The position numbers and the translations under genes are program-made. Below the pieces are notes generated by a model that was given only the letters and a program-made list of their open reading frames with translations, did not search any database and was not told the origin of the DNA. From an uncultured Pseudomonadota bacterium (GTDB lineage: Bacteria > Pseudomonadota > Alphaproteobacteria > Rs-D84 > CACZYB01), in the NCBI GenBank assembly GCA_963541275.1, contig CAUTSC010000001.1, positions 329,879 to 393,878 of the forward strand: a stretch of DNA of 64,000 nucleotides, read 5' to 3'. Below, piece by piece: positions 3,148-63,131 of this stretch. Positions within the stretch are counted from its first letter, which is position 1, and each line of letters starts with the position of its first letter.

Positions 3148-3407
3148 TTTTTTATCCTTCGTTTAATTGTTTTTTTATCTCTTACTTACAAACTTTACTA
3201 ACCAGAACCTAATCTGTTAGAGGCAAGCGAATTTTCTGTTGAGATAAAAAGAACAATTCACCGCCGGCTAAATTCGGCGGAAACTACGGATAACAAGAAT
3301 ATCAATACTAAAATCGTTCATAATAAACGAATCTATATGGAAAATAAAATTATGTCAAGCATTTTTTTACTGCGAGTACTTTCATACCCGCAATAACTTA
3401 ACAAGGT

Positions 3408-3917
3408 TTAATCTTTTTTAAAAATACCTTCAATTTTATTTATTTCTTTACAACTTCCTGTGGAAGAGGTGGTTTTTGTATTATTTATATTTATTGAGAT
3501 TGCATGTTTTTGTTCCAACACATTAAACACAACGTTGCAATCTTTTTGATTTAATCCATTAAAAGTTAATTTTATGGTATCTGGAACTGGAACATTGTTT
3601 CCCGTTGCCTTTATGCCCGGTTTAACACCAACTTTTACTTCTTGTCCATTCCAAGGACTTTTAAGGGAAATATCACCCATCTTTGTTTTAACTATGCCTG
3701 TGATATCTTGCTCTGTTGTAAAACTTCTTCCTAAATAATAATTATTTACTTTTTCAACCACATCGCCAACCAAAGTGTCTGTTTTTATTCTGTTTGTTTT
3801 TTGCACTGCTTCGGAATAAGTTTGTATGATACCAGTTCCAATAACAATTGTTATTCCAAGATAAAGCAACATTTCCATCATTGAACGACCAGAATCATTT
3901 TTATATTTTAATTTCAT
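3408..3917 (-). CDS. type IV pilin / pseudopilin-like protein (prepilin-type N-terminus)
   Basis: The N-terminus MKLKYKNDSG|RSMMEMLLYLGITIVIGTGII has Gly at -1 and Glu at +5 relative to the predicted cleavage site, followed by a hydrophobic helix. This is the prepilin peptidase signature. Two C-terminal Cys (CNVV...GSCKE) suggest a disulfide loop as in type IVa pilins. Confidence 0.6.
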   Translation of the reverse strand: MKLKYKNDSGRSMMEMLLYLGITIVIGTGIIQTYSEAVQKTNRIKTDTLVGDVVEKVNNYYLGRSFTTEQDITGIVKTKMGDISLKSPWNGQEVKVGVKPGIKATGNNVPVPDTIKLTFNGLNQKDCNVVFNVLEQKHAISININNTKTTSSTGSCKEINKIEGIFKKD

Positions 3918-5533: not shown

Positions 5534-6955
5534 ATGTTTAAATTTATAGTTTTGATTTTGTTTTTTCTTTCTGTAAATGTTAAGGCAGAAGAAATAAAAG
5601 ATGCCAATAATATAGAGGCAGGTAAACTTGTAGCAACAACAATGAAAGCTGTTGAAAATAAAGAAAGTGAGAAAAAAGAAGAAAAACAAGAAGCAGAAAA
5701 CACAAAAGATAAAAAGGATACAATAGAATTAAAACATGAAGATTTTTTGCCTCTTGCAAAAGTATTGATTTCCAAAAAAAAATATGATGAAGCAGAAAAA
5801 ATTTTAACAATTGAACCATATAATGTTTTGGAATTGGAACTTGAAAGATTAAATTTACTGGCAGAAGTTTATAAGGGTAAAGGACAGCTTGATAAAGCAG
5901 AAGAAACCTATCGTTTTATTTTGGATTTTCAACCAAATCTTACTCCTATCAGGTTGAAACTTGCAGAAATTGCCTTTATGAAGGGAAATTTTGTAAGTGC
6001 AGATTATCATTTTAAATTGGTGCTTACAGATAAGGATGTTCCAGATACAGTAAGGCAAAATATAAATATGGTAAGATATCTTATAAGAAAAAATAAAAAT
6101 TGGAATGTTTGGGTTGATTTTGGAATTGCTCCAGATACCAATTTCAATAATACATCTTATAATAAATGTATAACTATTTTAGGGTTGGAACTTTGTAATA
6201 AAAGCGAAGAAGAGTTGGTTATAGGTTTTAACACTGCCGCTGGTTTAAACTATGAACTTAAATTTGGAAATAATTGGCAGATAAGAAATGAGTTTATAAT
6301 TCAAAAAAACACTTATAATAAGCCAGAATACAATGATTTATATCTTGCTTATAATGTTGGGCCAAAATTTGTTCATAAAAGAGGAGAAACTTTTTTATCA
6401 CTTACAACAAACAAACAATATTTTGATGGTAAACCATACAGCTATTCCATAGGTGGGCGTTTATCAAACACTTTTGATATAACAGATAAATTATCCAATT
6501 CTGTGTCAATTGCATACAGCCCAATTTATTTCAGTGAATCACCAGAACAAGATAAAAAAATCTATTCTGCAAATTATGCTTTCTCTTATAGTTTGAATGC
6601 TTCGCAATATTTAATGTTAAAAAACAGATATAATTGGAACAAACCAAATAATCCAAAATATATTGGAAATAACAGTAAAAGTTTTTCAATTGGTTTTGGT
6701 ACAAGTTTATTTTGGGGATTTTCCGCTTATATGGAACCAAGCATAACATTTACAGACTACAGCAAAGCATTTTTTTCAAAAGGAAAAAGAAAAGATATAA
6801 CTTATAAATATGATTTATCATTATCTAATAATAAAATTTCATTTTGGGGATTTACACCAAATATAGGTATTGGTTATATTTATAATACTTCTAACAGCAG
6901 TATAAAAGAATATAAAAAACCAACATTTGAATTTAGTATCAATCAAAGATTATAA
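5534..6955 (+). CDS. outer-membrane protein: N-terminal TPR-like helical region plus C-terminal beta-barrel (Slam/DUF560-like or YaiO-like architecture)
   Basis: There is a signal peptide, MFKFIVLILFFLSVNVKA. The N-terminal 180 aa or so are helical and repeat-like (TPR-like). The C-terminal 290 aa are rich in alternating aromatic/polar residues, Asn/Tyr/Gly, and end in a terminal F-x-x-x-x-x-x motif (FEFSINQRL), typical of OM barrels. Confidence 0.5.
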   Translation: MFKFIVLILFFLSVNVKAEEIKDANNIEAGKLVATTMKAVENKESEKKEEKQEAENTKDKKDTIELKHEDFLPLAKVLISKKKYDEAEKILTIEPYNVLELELERLNLLAEVYKGKGQLDKAEETYRFILDFQPNLTPIRLKLAEIAFMKGNFVSADYHFKLVLTDKDVPDTVRQNINMVRYLIRKNKNWNVWVDFGIAPDTNFNNTSYNKCITILGLELCNKSEEELVIGFNTAAGLNYELKFGNNWQIRNEFIIQKNTYNKPEYNDLYLAYNVGPKFVHKRGETFLSLTTNKQYFDGKPYSYSIGGRLSNTFDITDKLSNSVSIAYSPIYFSESPEQDKKIYSANYAFSYSLNASQYLMLKNRYNWNKPNNPKYIGNNSKSFSIGFGTSLFWGFSAYMEPSITFTDYSKAFFSKGKRKDITYKYDLSLSNNKISFWGFTPNIGIGYIYNTSNSSIKEYKKPTFEFSINQRL

Positions 6956-7909: not shown

Positions 7910-7931
7910 TTTATTTTTTATACCTTTGCAT

Positions 7932-7967
7932 AAAACAAGGAATCTTAATAGTTCCTTGTTTTTTTAT
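7932..7967 (+). terminator. rho-independent terminator after rpsD
   Basis: A hairpin AAACAAGGAA-tcttaatag-TTCCTTGTTT followed by a T7 run. Confidence 0.6.
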
Positions 7968-8546
7968 GAAAAAATTTATTCCAAAAATTATTAATTTAGG
8001 ATTTTATAAAAGAGATCTTTTAAATATAGATTCATTCAAATATTTTTTTGTAAAAATATTCGCCAGAAACGTAGTATCTTAAATATATAATGAATAGGTG
8101 AAGTTTAATTTAAAAAATCATACAAATATTTTGTGATAACCAAAATATTTGCCAATTTTTGTTTATAAAAATTATATATAAATTTTTTTAGATAATTTTA
8201 TGAGTTTAAGAATTCTTGTTTAGTAAATAAATGGGGATATTTTTTTATATGTTATTTTAATATGTGTCATTGAAATATTTTATTTAAGCAACATATTTAA
8301 CAATTTTTGCTTGCAAAAATTATATAACAATACAGATTTTTTTCATTGTAAGATGTATTTTATTTAATCTATATGCATTCAAATATCATTATTGTAAAGA
8401 TATTTGCCAATTTTTACAAAGTAAAAATTATATAAATATAAATAAGTACATATATTTACTTTCCAATCATCCCTAGATATTTTTGCTCTTTCTATCTATA
8501 TACTCTCCCTTTTCTTCCACGTCTCAAAAAATCGCAGATTTCTGCC

Positions 8547-8626
8547 ATTTTGAAAATTTTTATAAAAAAATGTAAAAAATTTGCATTTTGTTCTTGACTT
8601 TTAAAAAATAATGATTATACTATAAT
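8547..8626 (+). repeat. about 80-nt intergenic repeat element, copy 1 (carries a consensus sigma70-like promoter)
   Basis: TTGAAAATTTTTATAAAAAAATGTAAAAAATTTGCATTTTGTTCTTGACTTTTAAAAAATAATGATTATACTATAAT. About 80 % identical to 19878..19957. Confidence 0.55.
8594..8621 (+). promoter_or_regulatory. candidate orphan sigma70 promoter (TTGACT-16 nt-TATACT)
   Basis: It has a perfect -35 TTGACT, a 16-nt spacer and a -10 TATACT within the repeat element. No ORF follows; a small hairpin, GGGTAaagtaTACCC, lies at about 8636-8650. Confidence 0.4.
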
Positions 8627-8715
8627 TAACCAAAGGGTAAAGTATACCCAAAATTTCCAGAGAATAGATTTTTTATTTGCTATGGTGCGGACGCAGCTCG
8701 TTGTTGCTATGTGAA

Positions 8716-8790
8716 TTTTATTAAATATTTCATCCCAATATTTTTCTAAAGAAAAATGTTGGCCGCAAACTTTGTTTGCAAAAAAAACTA
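8716..8790 (+). repeat. direct repeat copy A (ATTTCATCCCAATATTTTTCTAAAGAAAAATGTTGG...TTTGCAAAAA)
   Basis: It pairs with 8945..9020 (about 85 % identity). Confidence 0.5.
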
Positions 8791-8944
8791 GAGAATAGAA
8801 AAATTTTAAAAAAAAGTAAAAAAAATTACTTTCCCTCTTGAAATTTAAAAATCGGGTACATATATATAAAATACGGCAGGGGTGAAGTCTGCAAAAATCA
8901 ATGATAGGGATTTATTATTTCAAAAAATTACTAGTTTGTGTGAT

Positions 8945-9020
8945 ATGAATTTAAATATATCATTCCAATATTTTTCTAAAGAAAAATGTTGGCGAGTTTT
9001 TGCTTGCAAAAATTATACTT
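8945..9020 (+). repeat. direct repeat copy B (ATATCATTCCAATATTTTTCTAAAGAAAAATGTTGG...TTGCTTGCAAAAATT)
   Basis: It pairs with 8716..8790. Confidence 0.5.
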
Positions 9021-9069
9021 TAATTTTATCATGAATGTGGATAGAAGGGTCTGAAAGCCCTATTAAATG

Positions 9070-9190
9070 GTGTGCTGTAAAGCATAGTACAAAAAGGGTA
9101 TATTCCTACTGTAATGGTAGGAAGGTGTAGGAATATTCAAATACTATACACTATTTCCATTTAATATAGTTTTCAGCTTCCTATCGCTAA
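9070..9190 (+). promoter_or_regulatory. conserved leader / operator-like element, copy 1 (TAGGAA/TTCCTA repeat array) upstream of cassette 1
   Basis: ...TTCCTACTGTAATGGTAGGAAGGTGTAGGAATATTCAAATACTATACACTATTT....CTTCCTATC is near-identical to 61849..61952. It contains an inverted repeat TTCCTAC/GTAGGAA and four TAGGAA half-sites. Confidence 0.55.
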
Positions 9191-9221
9191 TGATTAGTGA
9201 TGAAAAACAAGGAGAGACTAT

Positions 9222-9707
9222 ATGAAAAAATCAAAAATTAAGTATGCGATTTTACTTGGGTTGTTATTGTATAAATCCAGTTCTTTTGCTGCAAGCGATG
9301 CAACAAAAAAGCTTATACATGAAACCCTTGCAAAATATGGAATAAGTTCCGGCGGGAAAGAAGTATGCGGTACGGGACGAGAGCCAGAATATAACAATCA
9401 AACGGGAGTGGTAAAATGTAAAAACAATGCTGATGGCGACAGCAATAACTGCTGGGATGCAAGTTCCAGATTATGTAAAGAATGTCCCGTCGGTACAATA
9501 GTTAGTTCAAAAGATCACATAACCTGCAGACAAATTGTATGTCCAGATGGATTTGAGCTGAAAGAAATTATAAACAATGAATGTCCAGATGGTTTTGAAA
9601 TCAAATGGTTTGATGAAACTTGTGATGCAGAAACCTACGGCTTTAATGAAGTTATGGCAACAAAAAATTACACCACACAATCAACAAATTGTAAAAACAT
9701 AAAATAA
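9222..9707 (+). CDS. Cys-rich secreted protein, cassette 1 gene A (conserved N-module ATKKLIHETLAKYGISSGGKEVCG plus variable CPxG[FYM]E[LI] repeats)
   Basis: It has a signal peptide, MKKSKIKYAILLGLLLYKSSSFA, and a GGAGAG RBS. The N-terminal 24 aa after the signal are almost identical to the 61966 ORF. The C-terminal half is Cys-rich with CPDGFEL/CPDGFEI repeats. Confidence 0.7.
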   Translation: MKKSKIKYAILLGLLLYKSSSFAASDATKKLIHETLAKYGISSGGKEVCGTGREPEYNNQTGVVKCKNNADGDSNNCWDASSRLCKECPVGTIVSSKDHITCRQIVCPDGFELKEIINNECPDGFEIKWFDETCDAETYGFNEVMATKNYTTQSTNCKNIK

Positions 9708-9718
9708 AGGAGGAGAAT

Positions 9719-10576
9719 ATGAAAAAACATAAAATAAGTAAATTAGCATTGTTAACAGGATTGTTAATGATAAACACAAACACAAAAGGTTTCTATCAAT
9801 GCGTTCCTAAACAGGATTGGTTTAAGAAACAATATTATATCTTGACATTAGAGGATAAATTTAGAGTTGCTAAAACACAGATAAATAATCATAATCTGTG
9901 GATATTAGTTGAAGAAAATAAAACAAGTGGGAGTTTAGGTATCGGGATATATAAAGTAATAGTTGCAGGTGGGTGTGGAGGTGGTGGTGGAAGTGCAGGG
10001 AAAGATTATGAGGAGTATAATGTGTATTATTATCGTAGTGGTGGTGCTGGAGCAGTAGGGGAAATATCAATGAAACTATTTTATATTGATAGGTTAATGT
10101 CATATGCTGCCTGTATAGGATTAAAGGGTAGAAATGGAAGTGTTGGAGCTGGGGATGGAGGAAGTGGTGGTGGAGGAGGTGCAGGGTCTGCATTTAAAAT
10201 TAATGATTTAGAAATAATGGTTTCTGGAGGAGGTGGTGGAGGAGGTGCTTCTTCTCCTCATGGGGGAGGTGGTGGCGGTGGTGGCGGATATGGATGTGAA
10301 ATAGGAGGAAGAGGAGGATGGGGAAATAATAGTTATGATCATGTAAGTGGAGGAAATATTGTTAGAGATAGATATTTAGGTGGTGCTAAAGGGATAGATG
10401 GAGGAGAAGATTATGGAAACAATGGTGGAAGTGGTGGAAAAGGTGGTAGACCATGTGCAAATGGGGGTGTTGGAGGTACAGATTTGGGAAGTGGAGTAGG
10501 TGGTAATAGTTGTGCTACAAAAGGAAATGGCAATACTGGTGATGGTTATGTTAAAATTTACAAATATATTGGATAA
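9719..10576 (+). CDS. Gly-rich secreted protein, cassette 1 gene B
   Basis: It has a signal peptide and the conserved FYQCVPK..W start. Long GGGGGGG/GGSGG tracts give a local GC spike from GGN codons. The conserved C-terminus is GDGYVKIYKYIG. It is a paralog of 62523..63080. The RBS is AAGGAGGAG. Confidence 0.7.
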   Translation: MKKHKISKLALLTGLLMINTNTKGFYQCVPKQDWFKKQYYILTLEDKFRVAKTQINNHNLWILVEENKTSGSLGIGIYKVIVAGGCGGGGGSAGKDYEEYNVYYYRSGGAGAVGEISMKLFYIDRLMSYAACIGLKGRNGSVGAGDGGSGGGGGAGSAFKINDLEIMVSGGGGGGGASSPHGGGGGGGGGYGCEIGGRGGWGNNSYDHVSGGNIVRDRYLGGAKGIDGGEDYGNNGGSGGKGGRPCANGGVGGTDLGSGVGGNSCATKGNGNTGDGYVKIYKYIG

Positions 10577-10579
10577 TGT

Positions 10580-10608
10580 GTAAGATAGTATTTACTATCT
10601 TACTTTTC
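10580..10608 (+). terminator. hairpin terminator after cassette 1 (overlaps the glgB stop)
   Basis: GTAAGATAGTA-tt-TACTATCTTAC followed by TTTTC. Confidence 0.5.
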
Positions 10609-12793
10609 ATTCCATATTCATAAGTATAACACAGCTAAGGGGTGGTAGGGTTATATTGATTGAAAATTGTTTATTGTGCCATGGGGTGTTTTCTGTTTCT
10701 ATTGTCATTCGGTTTTTAACTCCACTGCCACCATACATAATGTCATCGCTGTTAAAAATTTCTTTTAAAATTGTATCTTTTGTGATACCAACTCTGTAAT
10801 CATATCTTACAACCGGAGTCATATTTACAACTATTATAACAAAATTATTTTTGCTGCTGTCATATCTTATATAACTGAAAATTTGATTATTTATATCATC
10901 TCCACAAATCCATTCAAAAAGATCTTTATTAGAGTCACCCTGATATAAACATTTATTGGTTGTATAAAGTAAATTTAAATCTTTTACCAGGTTTTGGATT
11001 CCTTTGTGTTTTGGATCATTTAATAAATGCCAATCAAGACTTTGTTCTTTATTCCATTCGTTATATTGACCAAACTCCCCCCCCATAAATAATAATTTTT
11101 TTCCAGGGTAAGACCACATGAAAGATAAAAATAACCTTAAATTTGCAAATTTTTGCCATTCATCACCTGGCATTTTTGAAAGCAAACTTTGTTTTCCATA
11201 AACAACTTCATCATGAGAAATTGGAAGCACAAAATTTTCACTGAACGCATAATGAAATGTAAATCCAATTAAATGTTGATGATATTTTCTGTAAACTGGA
11301 TCTTTTGTAAAATAGGAAAGTATGTCATGCATCCAACCCATATTCCATTTATAACCAAAACCCAGTCCTCCACAATTAACTGGTTTTGAAACATCTTTCC
11401 AACTGGTGGATTCTTCGGCATATGATGCAAAATGTGGACATTTTTCATAAAGTAAAATGTTGGTGTTTTTTAAAAAATCTATTGCTTCTAAATTATCGTG
11501 CCCACCATATTTATTTGGCGTCCATTCACCTGGACTTTTTGAATAGTCAAGATATAACATAGATGCAACCGCATCAAAGCGAAGTCCGTCAACTTTATAT
11601 TCTGTTAACCAAAAAAGGGCAGAGGAAAATAAAAAATTAACAACTTCTTTTTTAGAGTAGTCATAAATTTTTGTACCCCAATCTTTATGTTCACCTTTTT
11701 TAGTATCCGCATATTCATAAAGTGGTGTTCCATCAAAATTAGCAAGTCCGTGCGGATCCTTTGGAAAATGTGCCGACACCCAATCAAGTATAACGGCAAT
11801 ACCAGCCTTATGACATTCATTTATAAAATATTTAAAATCTGTTGGTGTACCATATCTGGATGTTGGGGCAAACATGCCAATTGTTTGATAACCCCATGAA
11901 TCATCAAATGGATATTCCATAACAGGCATTATTTCAATATGTGTGAAACCCATATATTTAACATAAGGGATAAGTTCGTTTGCAAGATCGCGATAAGTAA
12001 GCCAAAAATAACCATCCTTTTTTCGCCAAGAACCAAGATGAACTTCGTAAATTGAGATAGGTTTTGAAATGGAGTTAATAGTGTCTTTTTTTAGATTCCA
12101 TTCTGGTGTTTCATCCCAATTAAAATTTTTTATATCCCAAACAATAGAAGCATTTTTTGGTCTCATTTCTTGAAAAAAACCAAAAGGATCAGTTTTAAAT
12201 GGAAGTAGTTTTTTATTTTTATCCAAGAGTTCAAATTTGTAAAGCTCACCATCACCAATGTCAGGAATAAATATATCCCACAAACCACTTGTTAAATGTT
12301 TTCTCATAACATTAACACGCCCATCCCAATTATTAAAATTGCCAATCACACTTACCCTGTGTGCGTTTGGTGCCCAAAGTGCGAATGAAACACCCTTTAT
12401 TCCATTAAGGGTTATTGTTTGCGCACCAAGTTTGTTAAATAATTCAAAATGACGACCTTCACAAAATAAATAATCATCTATATCGCCAATTATGGATGGA
12501 AAATTATAAACATCATTTTTAATTGTTTCATTATTATTATAATCAATGATTTTTAATTTATAATTAGTGATTGCTTCTGTAAATTGTAGTTCAAATAATC
12601 CAAACTCGTGAATTTTTTGCATTTGAAATTCAGTGTTGTTTTTGATTATAAAAATTGATTTTGCAGTTGGAATAAAAACTCTTATCACACAAGCTGTATC
12701 AAAATTATGAAGTCCCAAAACAGAAAATGGATCAGTATGAAAACCATTTACAATAGCATCAATTTCTTGATTGTTTAAAACTTGTGCTGACAA
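10607..12793 (-). CDS. glgB: 1,4-alpha-glucan (glycogen) branching enzyme
   Basis: A 728-aa protein with GH13 catalytic motifs: GLRFDAV, HFPKD, YAESHD-like, and the GFGYKWNMGWMHD block typical of GlgB. Confidence 0.95.
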   Translation of the reverse strand: MSAQVLNNQEIDAIVNGFHTDPFSVLGLHNFDTACVIRVFIPTAKSIFIIKNNTEFQMQKIHEFGLFELQFTEAITNYKLKIIDYNNNETIKNDVYNFPSIIGDIDDYLFCEGRHFELFNKLGAQTITLNGIKGVSFALWAPNAHRVSVIGNFNNWDGRVNVMRKHLTSGLWDIFIPDIGDGELYKFELLDKNKKLLPFKTDPFGFFQEMRPKNASIVWDIKNFNWDETPEWNLKKDTINSISKPISIYEVHLGSWRKKDGYFWLTYRDLANELIPYVKYMGFTHIEIMPVMEYPFDDSWGYQTIGMFAPTSRYGTPTDFKYFINECHKAGIAVILDWVSAHFPKDPHGLANFDGTPLYEYADTKKGEHKDWGTKIYDYSKKEVVNFLFSSALFWLTEYKVDGLRFDAVASMLYLDYSKSPGEWTPNKYGGHDNLEAIDFLKNTNILLYEKCPHFASYAEESTSWKDVSKPVNCGGLGFGYKWNMGWMHDILSYFTKDPVYRKYHQHLIGFTFHYAFSENFVLPISHDEVVYGKQSLLSKMPGDEWQKFANLRLFLSFMWSYPGKKLLFMGGEFGQYNEWNKEQSLDWHLLNDPKHKGIQNLVKDLNLLYTTNKCLYQGDSNKDLFEWICGDDINNQIFSYIRYDSSKNNFVIIVVNMTPVVRYDYRVGITKDTILKEIFNSDDIMYGGSGVKNRMTIETENTPWHNKQFSINITLPPLSCVILMNME

Positions 12794-12941: not shown

Positions 12942-14621
12942 ATGCGCAAAGGTGTAGTGTTATTTTTAATATCTTTTGGTATTGTGAATAATTGCTATGC
13001 GCTTACTTTTACAGGGGTGAAAAATTCTGTTGAAAATTTTGCCCCTAATATCGCAACAATTGATGATATACAAAAGCAACCTTCAAATGTTGCAATGATT
13101 CCTGATGCACCAATTATTTCACAAACACAGACAGAAAAAAATATTGATGGTGAAAAAGATGTTGCAAAATTGGATACAGATATTTTACCTGTTGAAATTG
13201 AGAAGGAGGAAGAAGATAAAGTTGAAAAAGAGTATGTGAAACCTGTTAAACAAGCAGTTATAAAAGCAGCAGAAAAAAAACTTGTAAAGAAGACAAAAAA
13301 AACTATAAAAAAAAATACAAACGATACGTTTGATAGTTTAAAAGTTGGTGATGGCAAAGAAATTTTGGTATCCATGTCTATTCCAAATAATTACAAGGTA
13401 GATGAAAATAAACAGGAAAAGATTGCAGAAAAAAAAGTTGTAAAAAAATATAAAAAAAGAAAGAAAAATTATAAAAGTGAGAATTTAACCACTTCTATAA
13501 CAGAGCCAATAATTTATGATAAACAGATAATTTTAGCAGATAGTATCAAATCAAAAAAGAATCCTATTTTTCCAATATTAAACAAAGCATTTAAAAAGGA
13601 AGAAAATGATATAGTTGAAAAACCAACGCTTGAACCAGTAGCCCCTGTTATACCAGAGACAAAAACTGCTTTTTCAAATTTTGATTCTGATGAATTGCCA
13701 AAATCTTTGGAACCTTTAGTTGATAAAACCACCCAAAAAAAATTGAAAAAAAATAAAAATATTGAGTATATAAATTATGGGGCAGAAATAAAAAATAATC
13801 CTTTTTTAAAGGCATTTTCTGCATTAAGACCAGAAAAAGTTAATGAAAATAAATTTATTCCAACTATTGCAAGTCCAAGGAAAAAACGTGAAAAAACTAT
13901 TGCTTTTGTTCCATCATCTGTTTTAAAAAATGATTTAAAAAAAACTTATTTATCAGATAACAAATATTTATCCCCAGTTGAATCTGTTGATGGTGATGAT
14001 GTTGCTGTGGAAGATGAGGCGCAAGATGAAAATAAAGAAGAAGATACACCCGAAGCAGCTGACACAGATACAATTTTGGAATTAAAGGATACAGATACAA
14101 ATAATACAGAAAAAAAAGAAGAGGAAAAATCAACAGAAAGTAAAAAGACAGAAGATATTGATATTCAAAAGGTAAAAGAGCAGTTAAAGACTTTAAAAAA
14201 AGAGCAAAATATAACGGGGTCTTTAAAAGTATCTGGTCGTGAAGTGTTGCATATGAAAATAGAATTTGATAAAAAAAGCAGTGCTCTTTCAACAGAAAGT
14301 ATAAATTTACTTCGTTCTTTTGGTCAAATTGTTGTTGATAAGCCGACAAACTCTATTGAAATAAGTCTTCCTATGTCTGTTATGAACAACATTGATAAGA
14401 AAAAATTAACTGCTCGTAGGCTTGCCATAGTTGCCAATGTGTTAAGGAATACTGGAATATCCGATAAACAAATAAATCCAGTGTTAAGTAGTCGTGATGA
14501 AGACAGCTTTGCATTCCGTATTATATCAAATGATAAAATTGTTCAACACAAAGTTGGTGGTGGTAAAGACATAATGGGTGATGAAACGAGCAGTAAAATT
14601 TATGACCTTATGAAATGGTAG
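12942..14621 (+). CDS. K/E-rich secreted low-complexity protein with C-terminal OmpA/MotB-like peptidoglycan-binding-like domain
   Basis: It has a signal peptide and long KK.KK/EEE low-complexity stretches. The C-terminus ...SIEISLPMSVMNNIDKKKLTARRLAIVANVLRNTGISDKQI... resembles an OmpA_C-like domain (LSxRRAxxV..L). Confidence 0.45.
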   Translation: MRKGVVLFLISFGIVNNCYALTFTGVKNSVENFAPNIATIDDIQKQPSNVAMIPDAPIISQTQTEKNIDGEKDVAKLDTDILPVEIEKEEEDKVEKEYVKPVKQAVIKAAEKKLVKKTKKTIKKNTNDTFDSLKVGDGKEILVSMSIPNNYKVDENKQEKIAEKKVVKKYKKRKKNYKSENLTTSITEPIIYDKQIILADSIKSKKNPIFPILNKAFKKEENDIVEKPTLEPVAPVIPETKTAFSNFDSDELPKSLEPLVDKTTQKKLKKNKNIEYINYGAEIKNNPFLKAFSALRPEKVNENKFIPTIASPRKKREKTIAFVPSSVLKNDLKKTYLSDNKYLSPVESVDGDDVAVEDEAQDENKEEDTPEAADTDTILELKDTDTNNTEKKEEEKSTESKKTEDIDIQKVKEQLKTLKKEQNITGSLKVSGREVLHMKIEFDKKSSALSTESINLLRSFGQIVVDKPTNSIEISLPMSVMNNIDKKKLTARRLAIVANVLRNTGISDKQINPVLSSRDEDSFAFRIISNDKIVQHKVGGGKDIMGDETSSKIYDLMKW

Positions 14622-19839: not shown

Positions 19840-19877
19840 AAAAATGGATTTTAATAATTTTTGCAGCAGATTTTTAT

Positions 19878-19957
19878 TGTTTTTAAAATTTTTATAAAAA
19901 AATACAAAAAATTTTCATTTTGTTCTTGGTTTTTTTTTTAATAATGACTATGTTGGA
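19878..19957 (+). repeat. about 80-nt intergenic repeat element, copy 2 (degenerate promoter version)
   Basis: TTTAAAATTTTTATAAAAAAATACAAAAAATTTTCATTTTGTTCTTGGTTTTTTTTTTAATAATGACTATGTTGG. It lies in the convergent gap after secA. Confidence 0.5.
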
Positions 19958-24652: not shown

Positions 24653-26788
24653 GTGTTATTATTTTATGGTAGAGAGAATAAAATGGCATTTTTTAAAAAT
24701 ATTTTTGAAGATAAGGAAATGGGGGAGTATAACAAGGCTGCCCGATGGCTTTTGTCTGCTTATATACTTCTTGGAATTTTTTATTGGTTTTGGCTTGTTT
24801 CTATTTTCCCTATCTCATATTGGATAAATCATAATTTTGATAATAGTGTTTTTTATTCTCATGCAATGAAAGTTTATTTTAGCAATATTTATAAAACTGC
24901 TGGATTTTATGTGTTGTATGAATATTGGTTGTGGGGTTTTTCCTTTCTACATGGTGAGACAACAACAATTATTCCAGTTATTCCAATTATGGCATATCCG
25001 TCGTTGCAACTTATGATAAAGAAAAAGAATCCTTATAAGATGATGGTTGTGCAGGATACTGCGAAAAAAGCTAATGAATCTATACTTAAAAAAATGAAAG
25101 TTTGGGATGGATTTATCATAGTTCTTGGTAAATTTAAAAAACGATTTTTAAAATTAAGTGAAACTTTATCTGTGCTTGCTTTTGCTCCACCTGGAACTGG
25201 TAAAACAGTTGGTATTGTTGTCCCTACAATTTTTGAATGTGATACGGTCAGCATGATTGTTAATGATCCAAAACCTGAACTTTGTTATATAACAAGTGGT
25301 TATAGAGCAAAAATCGGACCTGTGTTTATTATAAATTGGGGTGAAGAGGATGATCCAGAAAATAATATTTATTATCCATCCTGGAATCCTTTGTCCCCTG
25401 GAACTATTCCAAAACAAGGACCAGAAAGGGATATGTATGTTGATAGTATGGTTAATGTTTTTGTGCAAGATCCCGCTGGCTCATCTGCAGATCCGCATTG
25501 GACCAAAACTGGACGAAATGCTTTGTCTGGATTTATACATTTTATAGTTTCAAAGTGTGAAAGAGCAAAAATAAATGATTATTTTTATTCACGCCTTTTA
25601 AATGGGGAATTTAATTCAAACGATGCAATAAAACTTGAAACATATTATTCCAATATGAATACAACATATGCAAAGGCTGCTCTTTCTTTACTGAGAACTG
25701 GTGAGATGACAATAAATAATTACGTCCCGGTTGGAACATGGGATAATATTCCAGAGGAATGGGTTGGACGCGAAGCAAGTATACCACTTCTTTTAGATTG
25801 GTTAAATGAATCACAGGTTCAAATAAGTAAAAATATTACGAAAAGGAAAGAAGAGGGGGATCAAATGGCATCTCTTGCAGATCCTATGAAAGAGATGTTA
25901 GAAGATGCAGTAAGCGAATCTTTAAATTATGGTTATGCACACAGGGCTGTTTTAGAGTTGACACAGCTTGCAAATACTCCTGATAAAGAAAGGGGATCTA
26001 TTTTATCAACTGCACTTACAGGAATAGGAATTTTTAAAAACCAGGCGGTAAGGCAAAGAACGGATCACAGTGATTTTACATTTAAAGATTTACGTGGAAT
26101 GGTTGATCCAACTGATGGAAAAATTAAACCTATAACTGTTTATTTATCTGTTAATCAGGCTGATGCAAGGGCTCTTAATGTTATAACAGGTGTTTTTGTA
26201 GAGCTTATGTCAAATTTTTTAATTTCTAATCCTCCAAATAAAGTTGTAAATTTTAAAGGTGATAAGATAGGCCCTTATCCAGTTTTATTTGTGCTTGATG
26301 AATTTCCGCAAATGCCAAAATTAAATGCGGTAATAGATGGACCAGCAATAGGAAGAGGACAAAAAGTTTCATATTTATTGATAGCTCAGGATTTTGCTCA
26401 GGTAGAAGCTGGGTATGGTAAAGAAGCTGTTGAAACTTTGATGTCAACTACTGCTGCAAAAATACTTCTTACACAAAATAATGAAAATACTGCAAGGCGT
26501 TTTTCGGAAATTATGGGTAAAGAATCATTTAGTAAAGAAGTATATAAAAATGAAAGTCACAAAGATAAATTTAATTTAGATTCAGAGGAAAGTCTTGATT
26601 CAAAATCACTTTATTCAACATCAGATATAATGAAATTATCACCTGATAAGCAAATAGTTTTAATGCAAGGTTATCCAACAAATCCAATTGAGGCAGAAAG
26701 CCCAAGGTATTATAAGGATCCAGATCTTCTTGCAAAATCAAAGATTCCAGCTGCAACTCCTATTCCAAAATGGTTATTTAAAAAATAA
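24653..26788 (+). CDS. virD4: type IV secretion coupling protein (VirD4/TraG family)
   Basis: It has N-terminal TM helices, a Walker A (APPGTGKTVGIVVP), a Walker B (PVLFVLDEFPQMPKL) and an acidic C-terminal tail; 711 aa. Confidence 0.75.
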   Translation: MLLFYGRENKMAFFKNIFEDKEMGEYNKAARWLLSAYILLGIFYWFWLVSIFPISYWINHNFDNSVFYSHAMKVYFSNIYKTAGFYVLYEYWLWGFSFLHGETTTIIPVIPIMAYPSLQLMIKKKNPYKMMVVQDTAKKANESILKKMKVWDGFIIVLGKFKKRFLKLSETLSVLAFAPPGTGKTVGIVVPTIFECDTVSMIVNDPKPELCYITSGYRAKIGPVFIINWGEEDDPENNIYYPSWNPLSPGTIPKQGPERDMYVDSMVNVFVQDPAGSSADPHWTKTGRNALSGFIHFIVSKCERAKINDYFYSRLLNGEFNSNDAIKLETYYSNMNTTYAKAALSLLRTGEMTINNYVPVGTWDNIPEEWVGREASIPLLLDWLNESQVQISKNITKRKEEGDQMASLADPMKEMLEDAVSESLNYGYAHRAVLELTQLANTPDKERGSILSTALTGIGIFKNQAVRQRTDHSDFTFKDLRGMVDPTDGKIKPITVYLSVNQADARALNVITGVFVELMSNFLISNPPNKVVNFKGDKIGPYPVLFVLDEFPQMPKLNAVIDGPAIGRGQKVSYLLIAQDFAQVEAGYGKEAVETLMSTTAAKILLTQNNENTARRFSEIMGKESFSKEVYKNESHKDKFNLDSEESLDSKSLYSTSDIMKLSPDKQIVLMQGYPTNPIEAESPRYYKDPDLLAKSKIPAATPIPKWLFKK

Positions 26789-34798: not shown

Positions 34799-36979
34799 AT
34801 GTTTGATAGATTTTGTAAAATAATTTTTGTTTTAAGTTTGATTTTTACAAATTCCGTATTTGCCAAAAAAACAAAAAGGCAGATAAGAAAAGAAAAATTT
34901 ATTTATCCTATGCCTGTTGATGCAGAATGTTATAGCGAAATAGATTATTGTTTTAACAGATATTGTTTTGATAAAAAAACTTTGACTGATGGTGTTTATT
35001 CAAAATGTTCTGCTGTGTCTCCTGCAAATATTTTAATAAATGTAGAGGAATGTTTGAAAACCAGATCTGTTGTTAAAGAGTTGGATTTAACAAAAGGTTG
35101 TAAAAAAGTTTCTTATAATAGAGTTTTAACTTTGCTTGAAAATAAGGATAAGATGGAAAAAGGTTTGAAAAAAAATTCTGCCAGTTGTCAATATGCAACA
35201 AATATGTTGCAATCCGCAAAAAAATGTTATGCTGCAATGATAAGTTCAGATGGATCTTTTTCACGAGATTTGTATGATAAATTGAATAATTTATGTGGTG
35301 AGCACATAAGTGGTGAACCAGATATGGTAAAGCGCTTTTTTAATGCTGGTGATTATGGTTTATCGGATCTTGATATGGTAGATGCTTTACGAGCATCAGG
35401 TCAAAATACGGTGAAAAGAGAAAATTGGCGTCAGGTTGTTGATGCAACTTTGGCAGGATATACAGAAATTGCAGAGTTGTCATGTGGAGAAGAAGATTAT
35501 CAAATAACAAAAGTGAATGATTATTTACTAGATAGCAGGAATAATTTGACAATGATAAAAATGAAAGAAGAAGCAAAACAAATAGGTAAAAAATTGGGGG
35601 ATAAGTTTGTGGACAGGATGTATCCGGGACAAACATGTAAATCACAACCTTTGCCAGAAAACGCTTTGATGTGGTATTATAGTCCAAATTCAAATCCAAG
35701 TTGTAGAATAGTTTGTAAAGAGGGTTATGTTGTTTCAAAATCTTTTACAAAATGTGTTGAACCAGTGGATAGTGAACCAGTATTTAATGGAATAAATTTA
35801 GGTTATGGTAAGTCAAAAATTAGTGGTAGTGTTGTAGCATTTCCAGGTGGGGGAGGTGGTGCTAGTGGAAGCGAAAATGTTGATGTAAGTAAAAATGGTG
35901 ATAAAAATACTGGGGCACCAGAAAAGTCAGATATCTCTGTAAGATGTAGGAATAACAAGAATCCTGTACGTTTAAAATATTCTGATACTAAAAAAGATAT
36001 TTGTGCTTTATTTTTCCCAAATAGTGTTGCAAATGGTAAGGAATATGAAAGATGTAGTGATGCACCAGAAAGATTTTATATAGATGGGAAATGGTATGAT
36101 ATGACTATAGCTAAGTTAAATAAAACTTTTGATCAAAATTTTGAAATTATGGGGGATAAATATGCTTCCAATATGTCAAAATATTTAAAGGATAATTGTG
36201 AAAAAATTTTGAAAGAGGACGATCCACAAGAAGGAGGAGAAACTGAAGCTTCAGGAAAAGATGGATGTATAACCGTTAAAAAATTTAAAGCATTGTTTGA
36301 TATGTTGGATAAAAGTTATAAAAATGAATTTATAGATGCAGAGTATAAGTTTAAAACAATGTTTAATTTGAATAATGTAAATGATTTGCAAAAAGGTATT
36401 GGTTCATTTAATATTTATAATCCAAAATATATTGATCAAATATATTTTATGCAGAATTTAGTAAAGAAGTATATACAAAGTTTTACAGAATTAAAAAATA
36501 AAAATATTTGTGATAAAACGTCTAAAAAAGTTGCTCAAATTTATAAACAATTGGATGAATTTTTATCTTATTTAAATAATCAAAATTATAAAATTAATTA
36601 TAGCAGATGTAATGTAGTATCTTTGAGATTTTTAAAACAAAATTTAGAAAATTTATTGGATAATAAATTAAATATATTAAAAGGTTGGAAGTCGGAATTA
36701 AAAGGAGATGGTGGTTTATTATATTATGAAAAATCAGATAAACTTTTTGATAATGATGAGAGATATTGTGCTGTTGGTAAATGTATTGAAGTTATAAATA
36801 TGAATCTTAATAGTGTTTGTTTTGAACGTTGTAATGGAAAAGTTTGGTTTGGAAATGATATGTTATCAAAATATTTTTCACAAGAGGATAGTAATGGAAG
36901 GAGATATTTACAAAAAGAAAAAGTTCAAAAAGATATTGATTTTTTACAATGTGTGTTGAATAGAGCAGGTGTTAATTGA
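34799..36979 (+). CDS. secreted hypothetical protein, paralog family member 2 (726 aa, Cys-rich)
   Basis: It has a signal peptide. The N-terminal 250 aa are paralogous to the 30747 ORF. It carries a long extra C-terminal region with a poly-Gly linker (PGGGGGASGSEN). Confidence 0.6.
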   Translation: MFDRFCKIIFVLSLIFTNSVFAKKTKRQIRKEKFIYPMPVDAECYSEIDYCFNRYCFDKKTLTDGVYSKCSAVSPANILINVEECLKTRSVVKELDLTKGCKKVSYNRVLTLLENKDKMEKGLKKNSASCQYATNMLQSAKKCYAAMISSDGSFSRDLYDKLNNLCGEHISGEPDMVKRFFNAGDYGLSDLDMVDALRASGQNTVKRENWRQVVDATLAGYTEIAELSCGEEDYQITKVNDYLLDSRNNLTMIKMKEEAKQIGKKLGDKFVDRMYPGQTCKSQPLPENALMWYYSPNSNPSCRIVCKEGYVVSKSFTKCVEPVDSEPVFNGINLGYGKSKISGSVVAFPGGGGGASGSENVDVSKNGDKNTGAPEKSDISVRCRNNKNPVRLKYSDTKKDICALFFPNSVANGKEYERCSDAPERFYIDGKWYDMTIAKLNKTFDQNFEIMGDKYASNMSKYLKDNCEKILKEDDPQEGGETEASGKDGCITVKKFKALFDMLDKSYKNEFIDAEYKFKTMFNLNNVNDLQKGIGSFNIYNPKYIDQIYFMQNLVKKYIQSFTELKNKNICDKTSKKVAQIYKQLDEFLSYLNNQNYKINYSRCNVVSLRFLKQNLENLLDNKLNILKGWKSELKGDGGLLYYEKSDKLFDNDERYCAVGKCIEVINMNLNSVCFERCNGKVWFGNDMLSKYFSQEDSNGRRYLQKEKVQKDIDFLQCVLNRAGVN

Positions 36980-38936: not shown

Positions 38937-39230
38937 AGTGGGGATAGTTGAAGAACTGCTGTATATTATAGGTATATATAGAGGAAAGTCTGGACACCTC
39001 AAGAGAAAGATAACGGATAACGTCCGTCTGTAGTAATACGAGGATTAGAGCCACAGAGACGAGTCTGGAAACAGAGTGAAACGGGCAATCTCTATCTGGT
39101 GCAAGACTAAATAGAAGGGTGTTGAGTGCTCTTGTGAACCCTTGGGTGAGTCGCATGAAATATGTAGTAATATATATTCAAGATAAATAGTTCTTTTTAA
39201 CAGAATCCAGCTTACAGACTATCCCTTGTA
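38937..39230 (+). ncRNA. rnpB: RNase P RNA (reduced type A)
   Basis: P4 5' strand is GAGGAAAGTCTGGAC and P4 3' strand is ACAGAATCCAGCTTA, with a compensatory CTGG/CCAG change versus the consensus CCGG/CCGG. P1 pairs GGGATAGT (38941) with ACTATCCC (39218). Internal ...ACAGAGTGAAACGGGCAAT... and GGTGCAAGACTAAATAGAAGGGTG blocks match conserved regions. It lies in a gap with no ORF. Confidence 0.7.
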
Positions 39231-61763: not shown

Positions 61764-61848
61764 TATAAAAATATTTTTCTTGTATAAAAATCTTTTTAAT
61801 ATTATCATAAAATTTAAAGAAAGGGTGTGACAACCCATGTACTAATAA

Positions 61849-61952
61849 AGTGCTGAATAGCACAAAGTGTTTTCCTACTGCAAGGTAGGAAGGTATAGGA
61901 ATATCCAATACTATACACTATTTTAGTACATAGTTGTCAACTTCCTATCAAA
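61849..61952 (+). promoter_or_regulatory. conserved leader / operator-like element, copy 2 (TAGGAA/TTCCTA repeat array) upstream of cassette 2
   Basis: GTGCTGAATAGCAC hairpin, then TTCCTACTGCAAGGTAGGAAGGTATAGGAATATCCAATACTATACACTATTT...CTTCCTATC. Confidence 0.55.
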
Positions 61953-61965
61953 AAAGGAGGATTAG

Positions 61966-62502
61966 ATGAAAAACTATATAAAAAATCATGGCAAAATTTT
62001 GCTGTTTGCTACGGGGATTTTATTTTCGCACAAAGCATTTTCAGCAAGTGAGGCAACTAAGAAGTTGATACACGAAACCCTTGCAAAATATGGAATAAGT
62101 TCCGGTGGTAAGGAAGTTTGCGGGGGTGATGAAGAACCAATTTGTAATGAACCAGGTTGCAAAGTTAAATGCAACAGGGTAGATGCAACAACTGGATTAA
62201 AGGCAAACAATTTCTGGTCGCCAAGTGATAGGTTATGTAAATCTTGTCCGGTTGGAACAATACTCAACAAAACCTCATTCCAAAGTTGTAATCAAGTTGT
62301 GTGTCCAGAAGGGACAACTGGGATAAAAGTGAGTGGTGGAAATTGTCCCACTGGGATGGATTTATTTGCTCCCAGCAAAGGAATCTGCCCCGAGGGATAT
62401 GAACTTATCAAAATTACAAATGGAAAATGCCCGGATGGGATGGAGCTTATTGATTTAAGAAACAACTGCCCATCAGGATATGAAATGTTTAAACAATCAT
62501 AA
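61966..62502 (+). CDS. Cys-rich secreted protein, cassette 2 gene A
   Basis: A signal peptide, then SEATKKLIHETLAKYGISSGGKEVCG (identical to cassette 1 apart from the first residue, which is D in cassette 1 and E here). The repeats are CPEGYEL, CPDGMEL, CPSGYEM and CPTGMDL. Confidence 0.7.
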   Translation: MKNYIKNHGKILLFATGILFSHKAFSASEATKKLIHETLAKYGISSGGKEVCGGDEEPICNEPGCKVKCNRVDATTGLKANNFWSPSDRLCKSCPVGTILNKTSFQSCNQVVCPEGTTGIKVSGGNCPTGMDLFAPSKGICPEGYELIKITNGKCPDGMELIDLRNNCPSGYEMFKQS

Positions 62503-62522: not shown

Positions 62523-63080
62523 ATGATGAAAAAACAAATAAGTAAAATAAGTTTATTAAGTGCAATGCTTGTTGCAACTATGGTAAACGCCCAAGAATTC
62601 TACACCTGCGTTCCAAAAAGGAATTGGTGGAGTGATCTTATAAAAGATGGAGTAGAAAAAGGAGTTACAGAAGGTAAGAAAGAAATAGAAGAAAATAAAT
62701 GGGAAACTATTATAGATCTTACTACGGACAGTAATCCTGTTGAATTAAAACAGGCATTGTTGCCAGGCAAATACAGAGTGACAGTTGCTGTTGCAGGAGT
62801 AGGTATGGACGGAGAGAAGAAAGTAAGAATATTTACCCTTGATAAGAAAGAAGAATTTAAAGCATGTATAGAAGTAAGTGGAGGAAATGGGGGAGATAAA
62901 TATAGTATTGGTAAAGCAACATATATTGGTGGTGGCGGTGGGGGTGGTGGGGGAAGTTATTTTGAAATAGGTGAAGTTAAACTTTTATTAAAAGGTGGTG
63001 ACGGAGAAGATGCCACTCAAGAAAAAGCAGGTAAAGGTGCCAGTCCAGATGGATATATTAAAATAGAAAAATGGAAATAG
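62523..63080 (+). CDS. Gly-rich secreted protein, cassette 2 gene B
   Basis: A signal peptide, EFYTCVPK..W, a GGGGGGGGG tract, and a C-terminal PDGYIKIEKWK (cf. GDGYVKIYKYIG in cassette 1). Confidence 0.7.
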   Translation: MMKKQISKISLLSAMLVATMVNAQEFYTCVPKRNWWSDLIKDGVEKGVTEGKKEIEENKWETIIDLTTDSNPVELKQALLPGKYRVTVAVAGVGMDGEKKVRIFTLDKKEEFKACIEVSGGNGGDKYSIGKATYIGGGGGGGGGSYFEIGEVKLLLKGGDGEDATQEKAGKGASPDGYIKIEKWK

Positions 63081-63103: not shown

Positions 63104-63131
63104 CTCTCCTGTTTTTTGCAGGAGTTTTTGT
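63104..63131 (+). terminator. rho-independent terminator after cassette 2
   Basis: TCTCCTGttttttGCAGGAG followed by TTTTTGTTT. Confidence 0.6.

Follow-up and report, generated by a model that had tools for sequence, protein, structure and literature searches.

What a bacterium gains from keeping many divergent copies of a gene pair for a cysteine-rich and a glycine-rich secreted protein, and how such a pair is switched on, is the question raised by a stretch of 64,000 nucleotides (the window) from contig CAUTSC010000001.1 of an uncultured alphaproteobacterium (assembly GCA_963541275.1). Within the window, a two-gene cassette composed of A, encoding the Cys-rich protein, and B, encoding the Gly-rich one, was found twice, 52 kb apart. 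A previous reading made from the DNA letters alone (the sequence-only reading) took it for a diversifying family of exported effectors, adhesins or bacteriocin-like proteins. The computational analysis reported here revealed that each cassette is a self-contained operon, formed by a sigma-70 promoter, a structured 5′ leader with a core of ~140 nt, the A gene, the B gene and an intrinsic terminator, a conclusion in which we have high confidence. As to function, the best explanation found, put forward tentatively, is that A and B, once exported through Sec, form an A·B complex with a binding role, as an adhesin or a receptor-binding module; duplication and recombination would have diversified it, and the leader would gate its synthesis. 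The cassette is more elaborate than the sequence-only reading saw, and less of a 'hypervariable orphan effector' than it proposed.

All features of both cassettes were placed on the forward strand. In cassette 1, a promoter scan located the promoter TTGCAA-N17-TATCAT at 9004..9032, upstream of position 9070, where the sequence-only reading had wrongly started the unit. The promoter was followed by the full leader at ~9040-9221, whose core (9047..9185) ended in the conserved, anti-Shine-Dalgarno-like tail CUUCCUAUC at 9177..9185, the first eight bases of which are CUUCCUAU. The A1 gene (9222..9707, 161 aa) was preceded by the ribosome-binding site AAGGAGAG at 9209-9216, and the B1 gene (9719..10576, 285 aa) by AGGAGG at 9708-9713; an intrinsic terminator with a 10-bp stem and then TTTTC closed the unit at 10580..10608, and a hairpin at 8965-8992 insulated it on the upstream side. 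Cassette 2 repeated this layout, with the promoter TTGTAT-N17-TATCAT at 61780..61808, the leader core at 61823..61949 and its CUUCCUAUC tail at 61941-61949, the A2 gene at 61966..62502 (178 aa), the B2 gene at 62523..63080 (185 aa) and a terminator found by the terminator scan at 63106..63130. The cassette 2 promoter, whose –35 hexamer fits only three of six positions, was missed by the consensus scan and was read from the sequence in alignment with the promoters of cassette 1 and of related loci; the same –35/–10 arrangement was present upstream of every related cassette. The four open reading frames (ORFs), their common order, their short spacing (A-B gaps of 11 nt in cassette 1 and 20 nt in cassette 2) and the strong ribosome-binding site before each gene agreed with what the sequence-only reading had described. 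The similarity extended to the upstream non-coding DNA, with a mean column identity of 76% between cassettes, and a 21-nt leader motif occurred exactly twice in the window against zero expected. None of the four genes looked like a pseudogene; gene decay is what the earlier reading had named as fatal to its proposal. A tblastn search of the window with all family proteins returned these two cassettes and no others. Their G+C content was 34-38%, compared with ~28% in the surrounding window, a difference probably due to Gly, Cys and Pro codons.

The two cassettes were confirmed as paralogous, with pairwise similarity going beyond low-complexity glycine, both for A1/A2 (43% identity, E=5e-37) and for B1/B2 (E=9e-13). 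In the alignment of the A proteins, the signal peptide was followed by a helix module that hardly varies and by a conserved cysteine framework, with 10 cysteines in A1 and 12 in A2. The mature N-terminus was formed by the near-invariant helix (A)SEATKKLIHETLAKYGISxGGK (helix module SEATKKLIHETLAKYGIS), and the 24-aa module ATKKLIHETLAKYGISSGGKEVCG, noticed before as a shared segment right after the signal, proved to be identical in A1 and A2. The A proteins had been said to diverge downstream of this module into different arrays of Cys repeats; an insertion of ~28 aa with extra CPxG repeats in A2, from which the A1 tail is missing, bears this out in part, whereas the cysteine framework is kept in both. 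A1-type proteins carried the C-terminal tail ATNNYTTxSTxCKNI (ATKNYTTQSTNCKNIK in A1), and A2-type proteins carried the extra CPxG repeats and the end YEMFKQS.

A is under purifying selection and is the constant partner of the pair, and B is the variable one. The ratio of nonsynonymous to synonymous divergence (dN/dS) of A ranged from 0.06 to 0.37 overall (0.23-0.37 for A1 and 0.06-0.21 for A2). On the source contig, seven A2-type paralogues were 80-93% identical to A2, while the B genes recorded there differed greatly. Within the invariant A module, synonymous sites varied freely and synonymous divergence (dS) between copies was ~1; therefore, its conservation was attributed to purifying selection at the protein level, and both a nucleotide-level (RNA) constraint and recent gene conversion were ruled out on the same grounds. 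The 'hypervariable middles' of the sequence-only reading consequently hold for B, whose length and body vary widely, and fail for A; that the family is duplicated and diversifying, and that each protein has a constant N-terminal module, was upheld. A matched no family in Pfam, NCBIfam, PHROGs or PADLOC. Its repeat unit, CPxG[FY]EL, weakly resembled EGF- and TNFR-like cysteine repeats, and comparison with EGF-like, cEGF (PF12662), TNFR and ephrin-receptor-like Cys-rich repeats gave no score over the Pfam threshold and no significant structural match. A represents a new family of small, probably disulfide-rich, Cys-rich repeat proteins.

B proteins had in common a signal peptide and the invariant mature N-terminus FYxCVPK..WW, after which came a linker, an 'LxPGKY+V' strand and, from there on, a body that varied. 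B1-type proteins followed the pattern NFYTCVPxDDWF...GDGYVKIYKYxG, with the N-terminus FYQCVPK and the C-terminus GDGYVKIYKYIG in B1 itself, and B2-type proteins the pattern QEFYTCVPKKSWW...DGYVIIEKxE, with the N-terminus QEFYTCVPKRNWW and the C-terminus DGYIKIEKWK in B2, a minimal version of the Gly-rich domain. According to the sequence-only reading only the two ends of B were conserved, a claim overturned by the alignment of B1 and B2 across the whole core (29% identity over ~200 residues). The Gly-rich members measured 185-360 aa and carried a Gly insert of ~10 to >150 residues. For the gene as a whole, dN/dS was 0.24-0.67 with dS near saturation, and positive selection was not detected gene-wide. 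In the N-terminal 36 codons the ratio was 0.04-0.14 for pairs of B2 type and 0.32-0.49 for the two pairs with B1 as a member, and in the bodies it was 0.33-0.73, an estimate limited by saturation and by alignment uncertainty in the Gly region. It had also been proposed that the Gly tracts are prone to slipped-strand length variation. They were found to consist of mixed GGN codons with only short, imperfect repeats: the units detected by Tandem Repeats Finder, all of them in frame, were either 9-12 nt long and present in 2-3 copies or TGG in 8 imperfect copies (80% match). Such tracts are poor substrates for slippage.

As to the nature of the B body, the AlphaFold2 model of B2 (predicted local distance difference test, pLDDT, of 72) matched the glycine-rich domain of ALK, and its closest structures included phage tail-fibre and tail-tip proteins. 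The three-dimensional similarity to solved ALK/LTK-type glycine-rich domains, in which a poly-Gly insert interrupts a TNF-like sandwich, was clearly above background. The modelling covered B2, whose Gly insert, a candidate polyglycine-II (PGII) helix bundle, is short and has a pLDDT <50 (residues 126-137). The bodies of the window B proteins are accordingly predicted to be TNF-like beta-sandwiches with an inserted poly-glycine region, for B1 through its homology to B2. B1 and B2 had zero matches in Pfam, NCBIfam, PHROGs and PADLOC, and neither they nor any of 24 aligned B proteins matched PF21722 (Gly_rich_2) at E<=1. A HMMER search of 1.84 billion representative proteins with a B profile that includes B1 recovered 95 proteins, mostly family members, among which P0153 was matched over the whole domain (E ~1e-6; best stretch, profile positions 54-232 against residues 202-386). 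P0153 scores 27.4 bits for PF21722, above the cut-off of 24.3, and also matches a PHROG tail-fibre family, so that homology of B to a bona fide PF21722 member extends at profile level across the whole domain. Large proteins with SprB-repeat or CarboxypepD_reg domains were rejected because their matches were confined to the short 'LxPGxYxV' strand motif, and the search of PDB sequences with the B profile gave nothing but poly-Gly linker artefacts. B is a divergent, remote member of the glycine-rich-domain fold group, linked to it by profile and structure; because the direct Pfam test fails, it was filed as a new subfamily below Pfam's threshold and not as a member in the Pfam sense. The statement that no characterised family could be recognised holds for A and has to be amended for B, which joins the fold group of ALK/LTK and phage tail-fibre tips.

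The two genes appeared to be bound to each other by type. In eight cassettes from related contigs, A1 was found with B1 in three of three cases and A2 with B2 in five of five. Moreover, distant homologues of B retained the N-terminus F[YW]QCMP, and the Cys-rich gene immediately upstream of P0153 (locus L073) matched the A profile (hhalign probability 96.9%, E=1.8e-10). Similarly, at locus L074, where the cassette follows a DHH gene as it does in L004, P0157 was preceded by a 130-aa A-like protein (…LQKYGVP…CRQISCPEG…CPEGYGLIEINNNQCP). The A-B pairing appears to be old, because these two distant loci retain it. In four B homologues (P0004, P0153, P0157 and P0167) a fused Cys-rich 'CxxGxYxxxxxCxxC' module, with weak TNFR- and ephrin-receptor-like Pfam matches, was located between the FYxCxP N-terminus and the Gly-rich domain. 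In the manner of a Rosetta-stone fusion, this hints at a joint role of Cys-rich modules and the Gly-rich domain, and a physical or functional A-B partnership was inferred because of the conserved adjacency and of these fused modules.

The region between promoter and A gene was the other conserved part of the cassette. The sequence-only reading had pointed to a leader, which does exist, and had overlooked its nature: the leader is a structured, covarying RNA, with a conserved sensor-like domain supported by covariation. Seven distinct leaders aligned well, and a covariance model scored 153 bits on the leader of cassette 1 and 111 bits on that of cassette 2. The fold consists of a long bipartite helix (P1), which joins the 5′ end to a segment ~100 nt downstream and closes the hairpins P2, P3 and P4, and this architecture was common to the minimum-free-energy folds of five of the seven leaders. 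Folding z-scores ranged from -3.2 to -5.6 across leaders (core and full leader, respectively: -4.9 and -4.1 in cassette 1, -5.2 and -4.8 in cassette 2), and the sense strand folded more stably than the antisense strand in all five leaders compared. The strands of P1 vary yet stay complementary, as in CUGAAA/UUUCAG, UGACAAC/GUUGUCA and UUAGUGAU/GUCGCUAA; cognate P1 duplexes had a mean energy of -14.6 kcal/mol, non-cognate ones of -6.8, and only 2 of 5040 permutations were equally good. When the seven leaders were aligned to the covariance model, 88% of cells were paired and 16 of 38 pairs were compensatory, compared with 7.6±1.8 in shuffles (none of 500 reached the observed count) and 1-7 in slid controls. 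Compensatory pairs were concentrated in P1 (10/18) and P2 (5/6), P3 and P4 being almost invariant, and conserved G·U pairs were present in the helices. In a window-wide Rfam search the leader had no match at the gathering threshold, and the best matches at E<=10 were far below it (for example, 22.9 bits against 130). A leader peptide was rejected since short upstream ORFs were not conserved between leaders. Locus L074 has a 280-nt leader of its own (3245-3525; z=-6.0), with a 10-bp long-range helix and no Rfam match; it was discarded as a homologue of the window leader, to which it gave only a 19.5-bit match.

The CUUCCUAU tail directly follows P1 and was identical in all seven leaders, the ninth base being U for C in L002. 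In predicted ensembles of five of six leaders, the ribosome-binding site of A was 81-96% paired, mainly with this tail (a thermodynamic prediction, with a probability of being unpaired of 0.04-0.19 in these five), and in cassette 2 it was 96% paired with the tail. From this predicted pairing a translational switch is proposed: once the folded domain captures the tail, the ribosome-binding site would become free. The leader may be the most novel part of the cassette.

The family was much larger than the window indicates. The four window proteins were 100% identical to proteins recorded on the 401-kb source contig (401,359 bp), which carries at least eight genes for A and at least ten for B, so that the count of two copies given by the sequence-only reading is right within the window and too low for the contig. 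The A family comprised 39 clusters at 90% identity; for B, a word-indexed search with B1, dominated by poly-Gly words, gave 5 clusters, and one with B2, in which the Gly run was masked, gave 33. The members of both families all came from ENA/NCBI assemblies. Scans with patterns from the A alignment found relatives absent from 185,579 GTDB species genomes, JGI metagenomes and IMG/VR. Apparently, the A/B family is large within its lineage and confined to it. The search for further copies of the module and leader that the sequence-only reading had recommended was fruitful, yielding eight related ENA contigs (L001-L006, L071, L072), each with promoter, leader, A and B. In these, the cassettes were located after comEC, after a DHH phosphoesterase gene, after rplU-rpmA plus an uncharacterised ORF, or after an ABC-transporter/FtsX pair; neighbours across all cassettes were rpsD, glgB, comEC, glgA, the DHH phosphoesterase gene, rplU-rpmA, ABC-transporter/FtsX and ychF.

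Comparison of these loci gave evidence of exchange. Contigs L001 (1-1680) and L002 (1-1098), compared with window positions 60449-62123, correspond to the comEC-adjacent region of related strains. Over 60449-61766 they are 93% and 83% identical to the window, and at this locus they carry A1/B1-type cassettes in place of its A2/B2. L001 was 93% identical to cassette 2 through the leader and the first 158 nt of A, and from there on matched cassette 1 at 71%; because identity shifts after these 158 nt, the breakpoint was placed at the end of the conserved N-terminal module of A. Chimeric B genes were also found, P0004 and P0005 joining a B1-type N-terminus to a B2-type body and P0094 showing the reverse. 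In L004 (1917-2563), B was interrupted, with an 83-aa N-terminal ORF followed by a 160-aa ORF in another frame, and an intact version, P0086, was present on the source contig; the L004 gene is either a frameshifted pseudogene or an assembly error. Repeats were observed around the cassettes as well. The ~1.1 kb between rpsD and cassette 1 (7910-9000; 22% G+C, no ORF >50 aa) and its border with the cassette contain four copies of a 65-80-nt repeat (8107-8186, 8256-8324, 8721-8784 and 8948-9027); both the hairpin at 8965-8992 and the –35 region of the cassette 1 promoter lie within the last of these copies. Fragments of the repeat flank cassettes, upstream or downstream, in L002, L004 and L071, and the repeats may mark places where cassettes were gained or lost in the past, or may act as a flanking recombination element. 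A second intergenic repeat (8534-8602 and 19866-19934; 84% identical), with the near-consensus promoter TTGACT-N17-TATACT, was also found downstream of the L072 cassette; it may be a mobile promoter element or encode a small RNA.

In the explanation favoured here, each cassette would be transcribed from its own promoter, and the leader would gate translation of A and probably also of the closely following, coupled B, the invariant CUUCCUAU tail sequestering the ribosome-binding site unless the four-helix domain captures it. A and B would then be exported via Sec and oxidised, and their invariant N-terminal modules would mediate assembly, either mutually or with a common conserved partner. The Cys-rich A would act as a constant stalk or adaptor, and the B body, a Gly-rich head in both window copies, would give binding specificity. 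The repertoire would change via duplication, indels in the Gly region and occasional recombination, for which the conserved 5′ part (promoter, leader, signal peptide and N-terminal module) could serve as a handle.

Several points weigh against this explanation. The A-B interaction, the final location of the proteins, the binding function with its target, and the direction and trigger of the RNA switch are all inferred. The Sec-type signal peptides on both proteins, accepted here as in the sequence-only reading, were read by eye from the sequences. About one third of B paralogues have non-Gly bodies, which end in STLEIYKKNDD or ELYKYE and show no detectable similarity to the Gly-rich domain beyond the 'LxPGxYxV' strand (hhalign probability 25%); a single fold is not claimed for all B proteins for this reason, and the term 'binding domain' may not fit the whole family. 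The window B proteins had no direct match to PF21722 or PF12810 at E<=1, and their sequence link to PF21722 is transitive, via the single protein P0153. Regarding the leader, the compensatory pairs were counted on an alignment fitted to a structure derived from one leader, with seven related leaders in all, and in two of these, L001 and L002, the inner P1 helix is poorly formed. For cassette 1, the prediction has the tail paired with the 5′ GGG and leaves the ribosome-binding site mostly free, and the switch model as a whole is a thermodynamic prediction.

Other explanations have been considered for the proteins. That the paralogues are structural or housekeeping envelope proteins (coat or matrix), kept as dosage or condition-specific isoforms, is unlikely: the extreme diversity of the B bodies and their replacement between strains fit it badly, as do the restriction of the family to a narrow lineage in the pattern searches and the elaborate regulatory leader on every copy. 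It would nonetheless account for the Sec signals, the disulfide-rich and Gly-rich composition, the strong ribosome-binding sites and the purifying selection on A, and rigid scaffolds made of poly-Gly (PGII) bundles are known from several unrelated proteins (PMC12227593). We consider it quite unlikely that B is a polymorphic toxin or bacteriocin-like effector, as the sequence-only reading had suggested among its options, with A as its immunity protein, chaperone or activator. A strictly conserved B N-terminus joined to interchangeable bodies (Gly-rich and several unrelated non-Gly ones) does resemble polymorphic-toxin architecture, A-type and B-type co-vary, and among the many paralogues the cassette at one locus varies between strains. 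However, searches of Pfam, NCBIfam, PADLOC and PHROGs returned no domain linked to toxicity, immunity or defence, and the predicted fold of the Gly-rich body is that of a binding domain and not of a toxin. Moreover, an A gene that lies upstream, is secreted and is nearly identical among paralogues with wholly different B bodies is the opposite of cognate immunity specificity, and Sec signals on both proteins would deliver a toxin into the producer's own periplasm.

A descent from phage, by which the proteins would be domesticated receptor-binding proteins (decoys, superinfection-exclusion factors or prophage tail-fibre remnants), has in its favour the tail-fibre and tail-tip proteins among the closest structures and the match of P0153 to a PHROG tail-fibre family. 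It was judged very unlikely, given that tblastn with A1 and B1 found no match in 50,697 phage genomes, none was found in IMG/VR, Sec signal peptides are present and fibre shafts lacking, and the cassettes have their own promoter and leader and are under long-term purifying selection; phage genes were absent around both cassettes and the related loci, and a prophage origin was rejected on this gene context. For the leader part alone, it is doubtful that the upstream element acts as DNA, through TAGGAA/TTCCTA operator sites or an attC-like recombination hairpin. In favour of such a role, every leader has the same four invariant TAGGAA/TTCCTA copies, little about covariation can be learned from the invariant helices P3 and P4, and the conserved 5′ part coincides with a recombination breakpoint. 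Yet P1 and P2 change in sequence and keep their pairing (15 of 24 pairs compensatory, with the 2/5040 permutation result), a sense-strand RNA is favoured by the conserved G·U pairs and by the sense strand being consistently the more stable one, and the element sits between a sigma-70 promoter and a ribosome-binding site. In addition, among the selected ORFs scanned, no integrase gene was found beside the window cassettes or in related loci. An attC/integron cassette was rejected, since no GTTRRRY (R′/R″) cores were visible and the structured element lies at the 5′ end, downstream of the promoter.

The host and the rest of the window were also characterized. Window genes encode the alphaproteobacterial form of AddB, as well as SecA, AlaS, Lon, ComEC and a VirD4-like coupling protein, together with RNase P RNA and three tRNAs. 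SecA was 66-73% identical to that of metagenome-assembled genomes labelled Alphaproteobacteria or 'bacterium', and those with a source in their name came from animal gut (water-deer rectum, Hadza human gut). The bacterium may belong to RF32, an AT-rich order of gut bacteria. The literature on PF21722, on the sample names and on gut RF32 biology offered nothing specific, and the libraries and papers searched contained no account of the A-B cassette, nor of any secreted-protein family whose many copies share a structured leader. The VirD4/TraG-like type IV coupling protein is encoded at 24653-26788; Sec-exported proteins can be substrates of type IV systems, pertussis toxin being the precedent. 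The class A RNase P RNA (38940-39230) matched over 291 nt of a 367-position model and is a reduced RNase P RNA. Three ORFs (5534-6955, 12942-14621 and 34799-36979; 473, 559 and 726 aa) had no NCBIfam match at E<=1e-5, and the second of them adjoins glgB near cassette 1. Both cassettes are convergent with minus-strand genes assigned by eye from their translations, an apparent glgB (10607-12793) and an apparent glgA (63139-63891); rearrangement at cassette sequences may have divided what was once a single glg cluster, or the arrangement of glg genes 52 kb apart may be a coincidence.

These results describe an undescribed multigene family in uncultured, functionally almost uncharted Alphaproteobacteria of the animal gut. 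With at least 10 cassettes in 0.4 Mb, and different cassettes at the same locus in different strains, the family suggests that a major axis of variation among these bacteria lies in surface or interaction specificity. The leader with its anti-Shine-Dalgarno tail is a candidate new cis-regulatory RNA that is directly testable, and the cassette offers a simple system for asking what a rare poly-glycine fold binds and how a Cys-rich partner contributes. Should the binding-complex explanation be wrong, the anatomy of promoter, leader, constant partner and variable partner would stand.

In the context of known variable surface proteins, Anaplasma msp2/p44 and Neisseria pilE/pilS are families with conserved 5′ ends in which segments are exchanged by recombination. 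Similarly, the A/B family has many paralogues, a conserved 5′ region, variable bodies, mosaics and a strain-specific cassette at a fixed locus. Unlike those systems, which rely on a single expression site and silent donors, every A/B copy has its own promoter, leader and terminator. Synonymous divergence between A/B copies is also near saturation, and exchange was therefore considered rare and not programmed. With respect to translational riboswitches and RNA thermometers that sequester the Shine-Dalgarno sequence, the leader is comparable in its ~140-nt multi-helix core, its long-range closing helix and its predicted anti-Shine-Dalgarno-like tail. It differs from known riboswitches in lacking an Rfam match, in preceding genes for secreted proteins and not metabolic or transport genes, and in occurring so far in one narrow lineage.

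As regards the fold of B, poly-Gly (PGII) domains occur in phage adhesins (PMC12227593), and PF21722 domains form the tips of the cyanophage Pam3 fibre (7ypx) and of the mycobacteriophage Bxb1 proteins gp33 ('tail wing brush') and gp29 (9d93). Compared with these tips, B stands outside any phage context and without a fibre shaft, has a Sec signal, the FYxCVPK module, its own promoter and leader and an obligatory Cys-rich partner gene, and in the window falls below the Pfam threshold. In ALK/LTK, the glycine-rich region together with an EGF-like module constitutes the conserved extracellular part that binds ALKAL/Augmentor ligands (PMC10605310), and the solved domain is composed of a TNF-like plus Gly-rich region, then the EGF-like module (PDB 7lir, 7lrz, 7nx3, 7ls0). 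By contrast, B is a stand-alone bacterial secreted protein of 185-360 aa without membrane anchor or kinase, has no sequence-level match to ALK or PF12810, and has its Cys-rich partner in a separate upstream gene, or as an N-terminal rather than a C-terminal fusion. The glycine-rich fold of ALK/LTK and phage fibres would thus be met in a new setting, that of small, free-standing, Sec-exported bacterial proteins with a dedicated Cys-rich partner. In its boldest and rather improbable form, the comparison would make the leader a new class of ligand- or signal-sensing translational riboswitch and, at the same time, A·B a bacterial split counterpart of the ALK/LTK supermodule of TNF-like/Gly-rich and Cys-rich parts; if this were true, one signal would switch on a whole repertoire of A·B binding modules.

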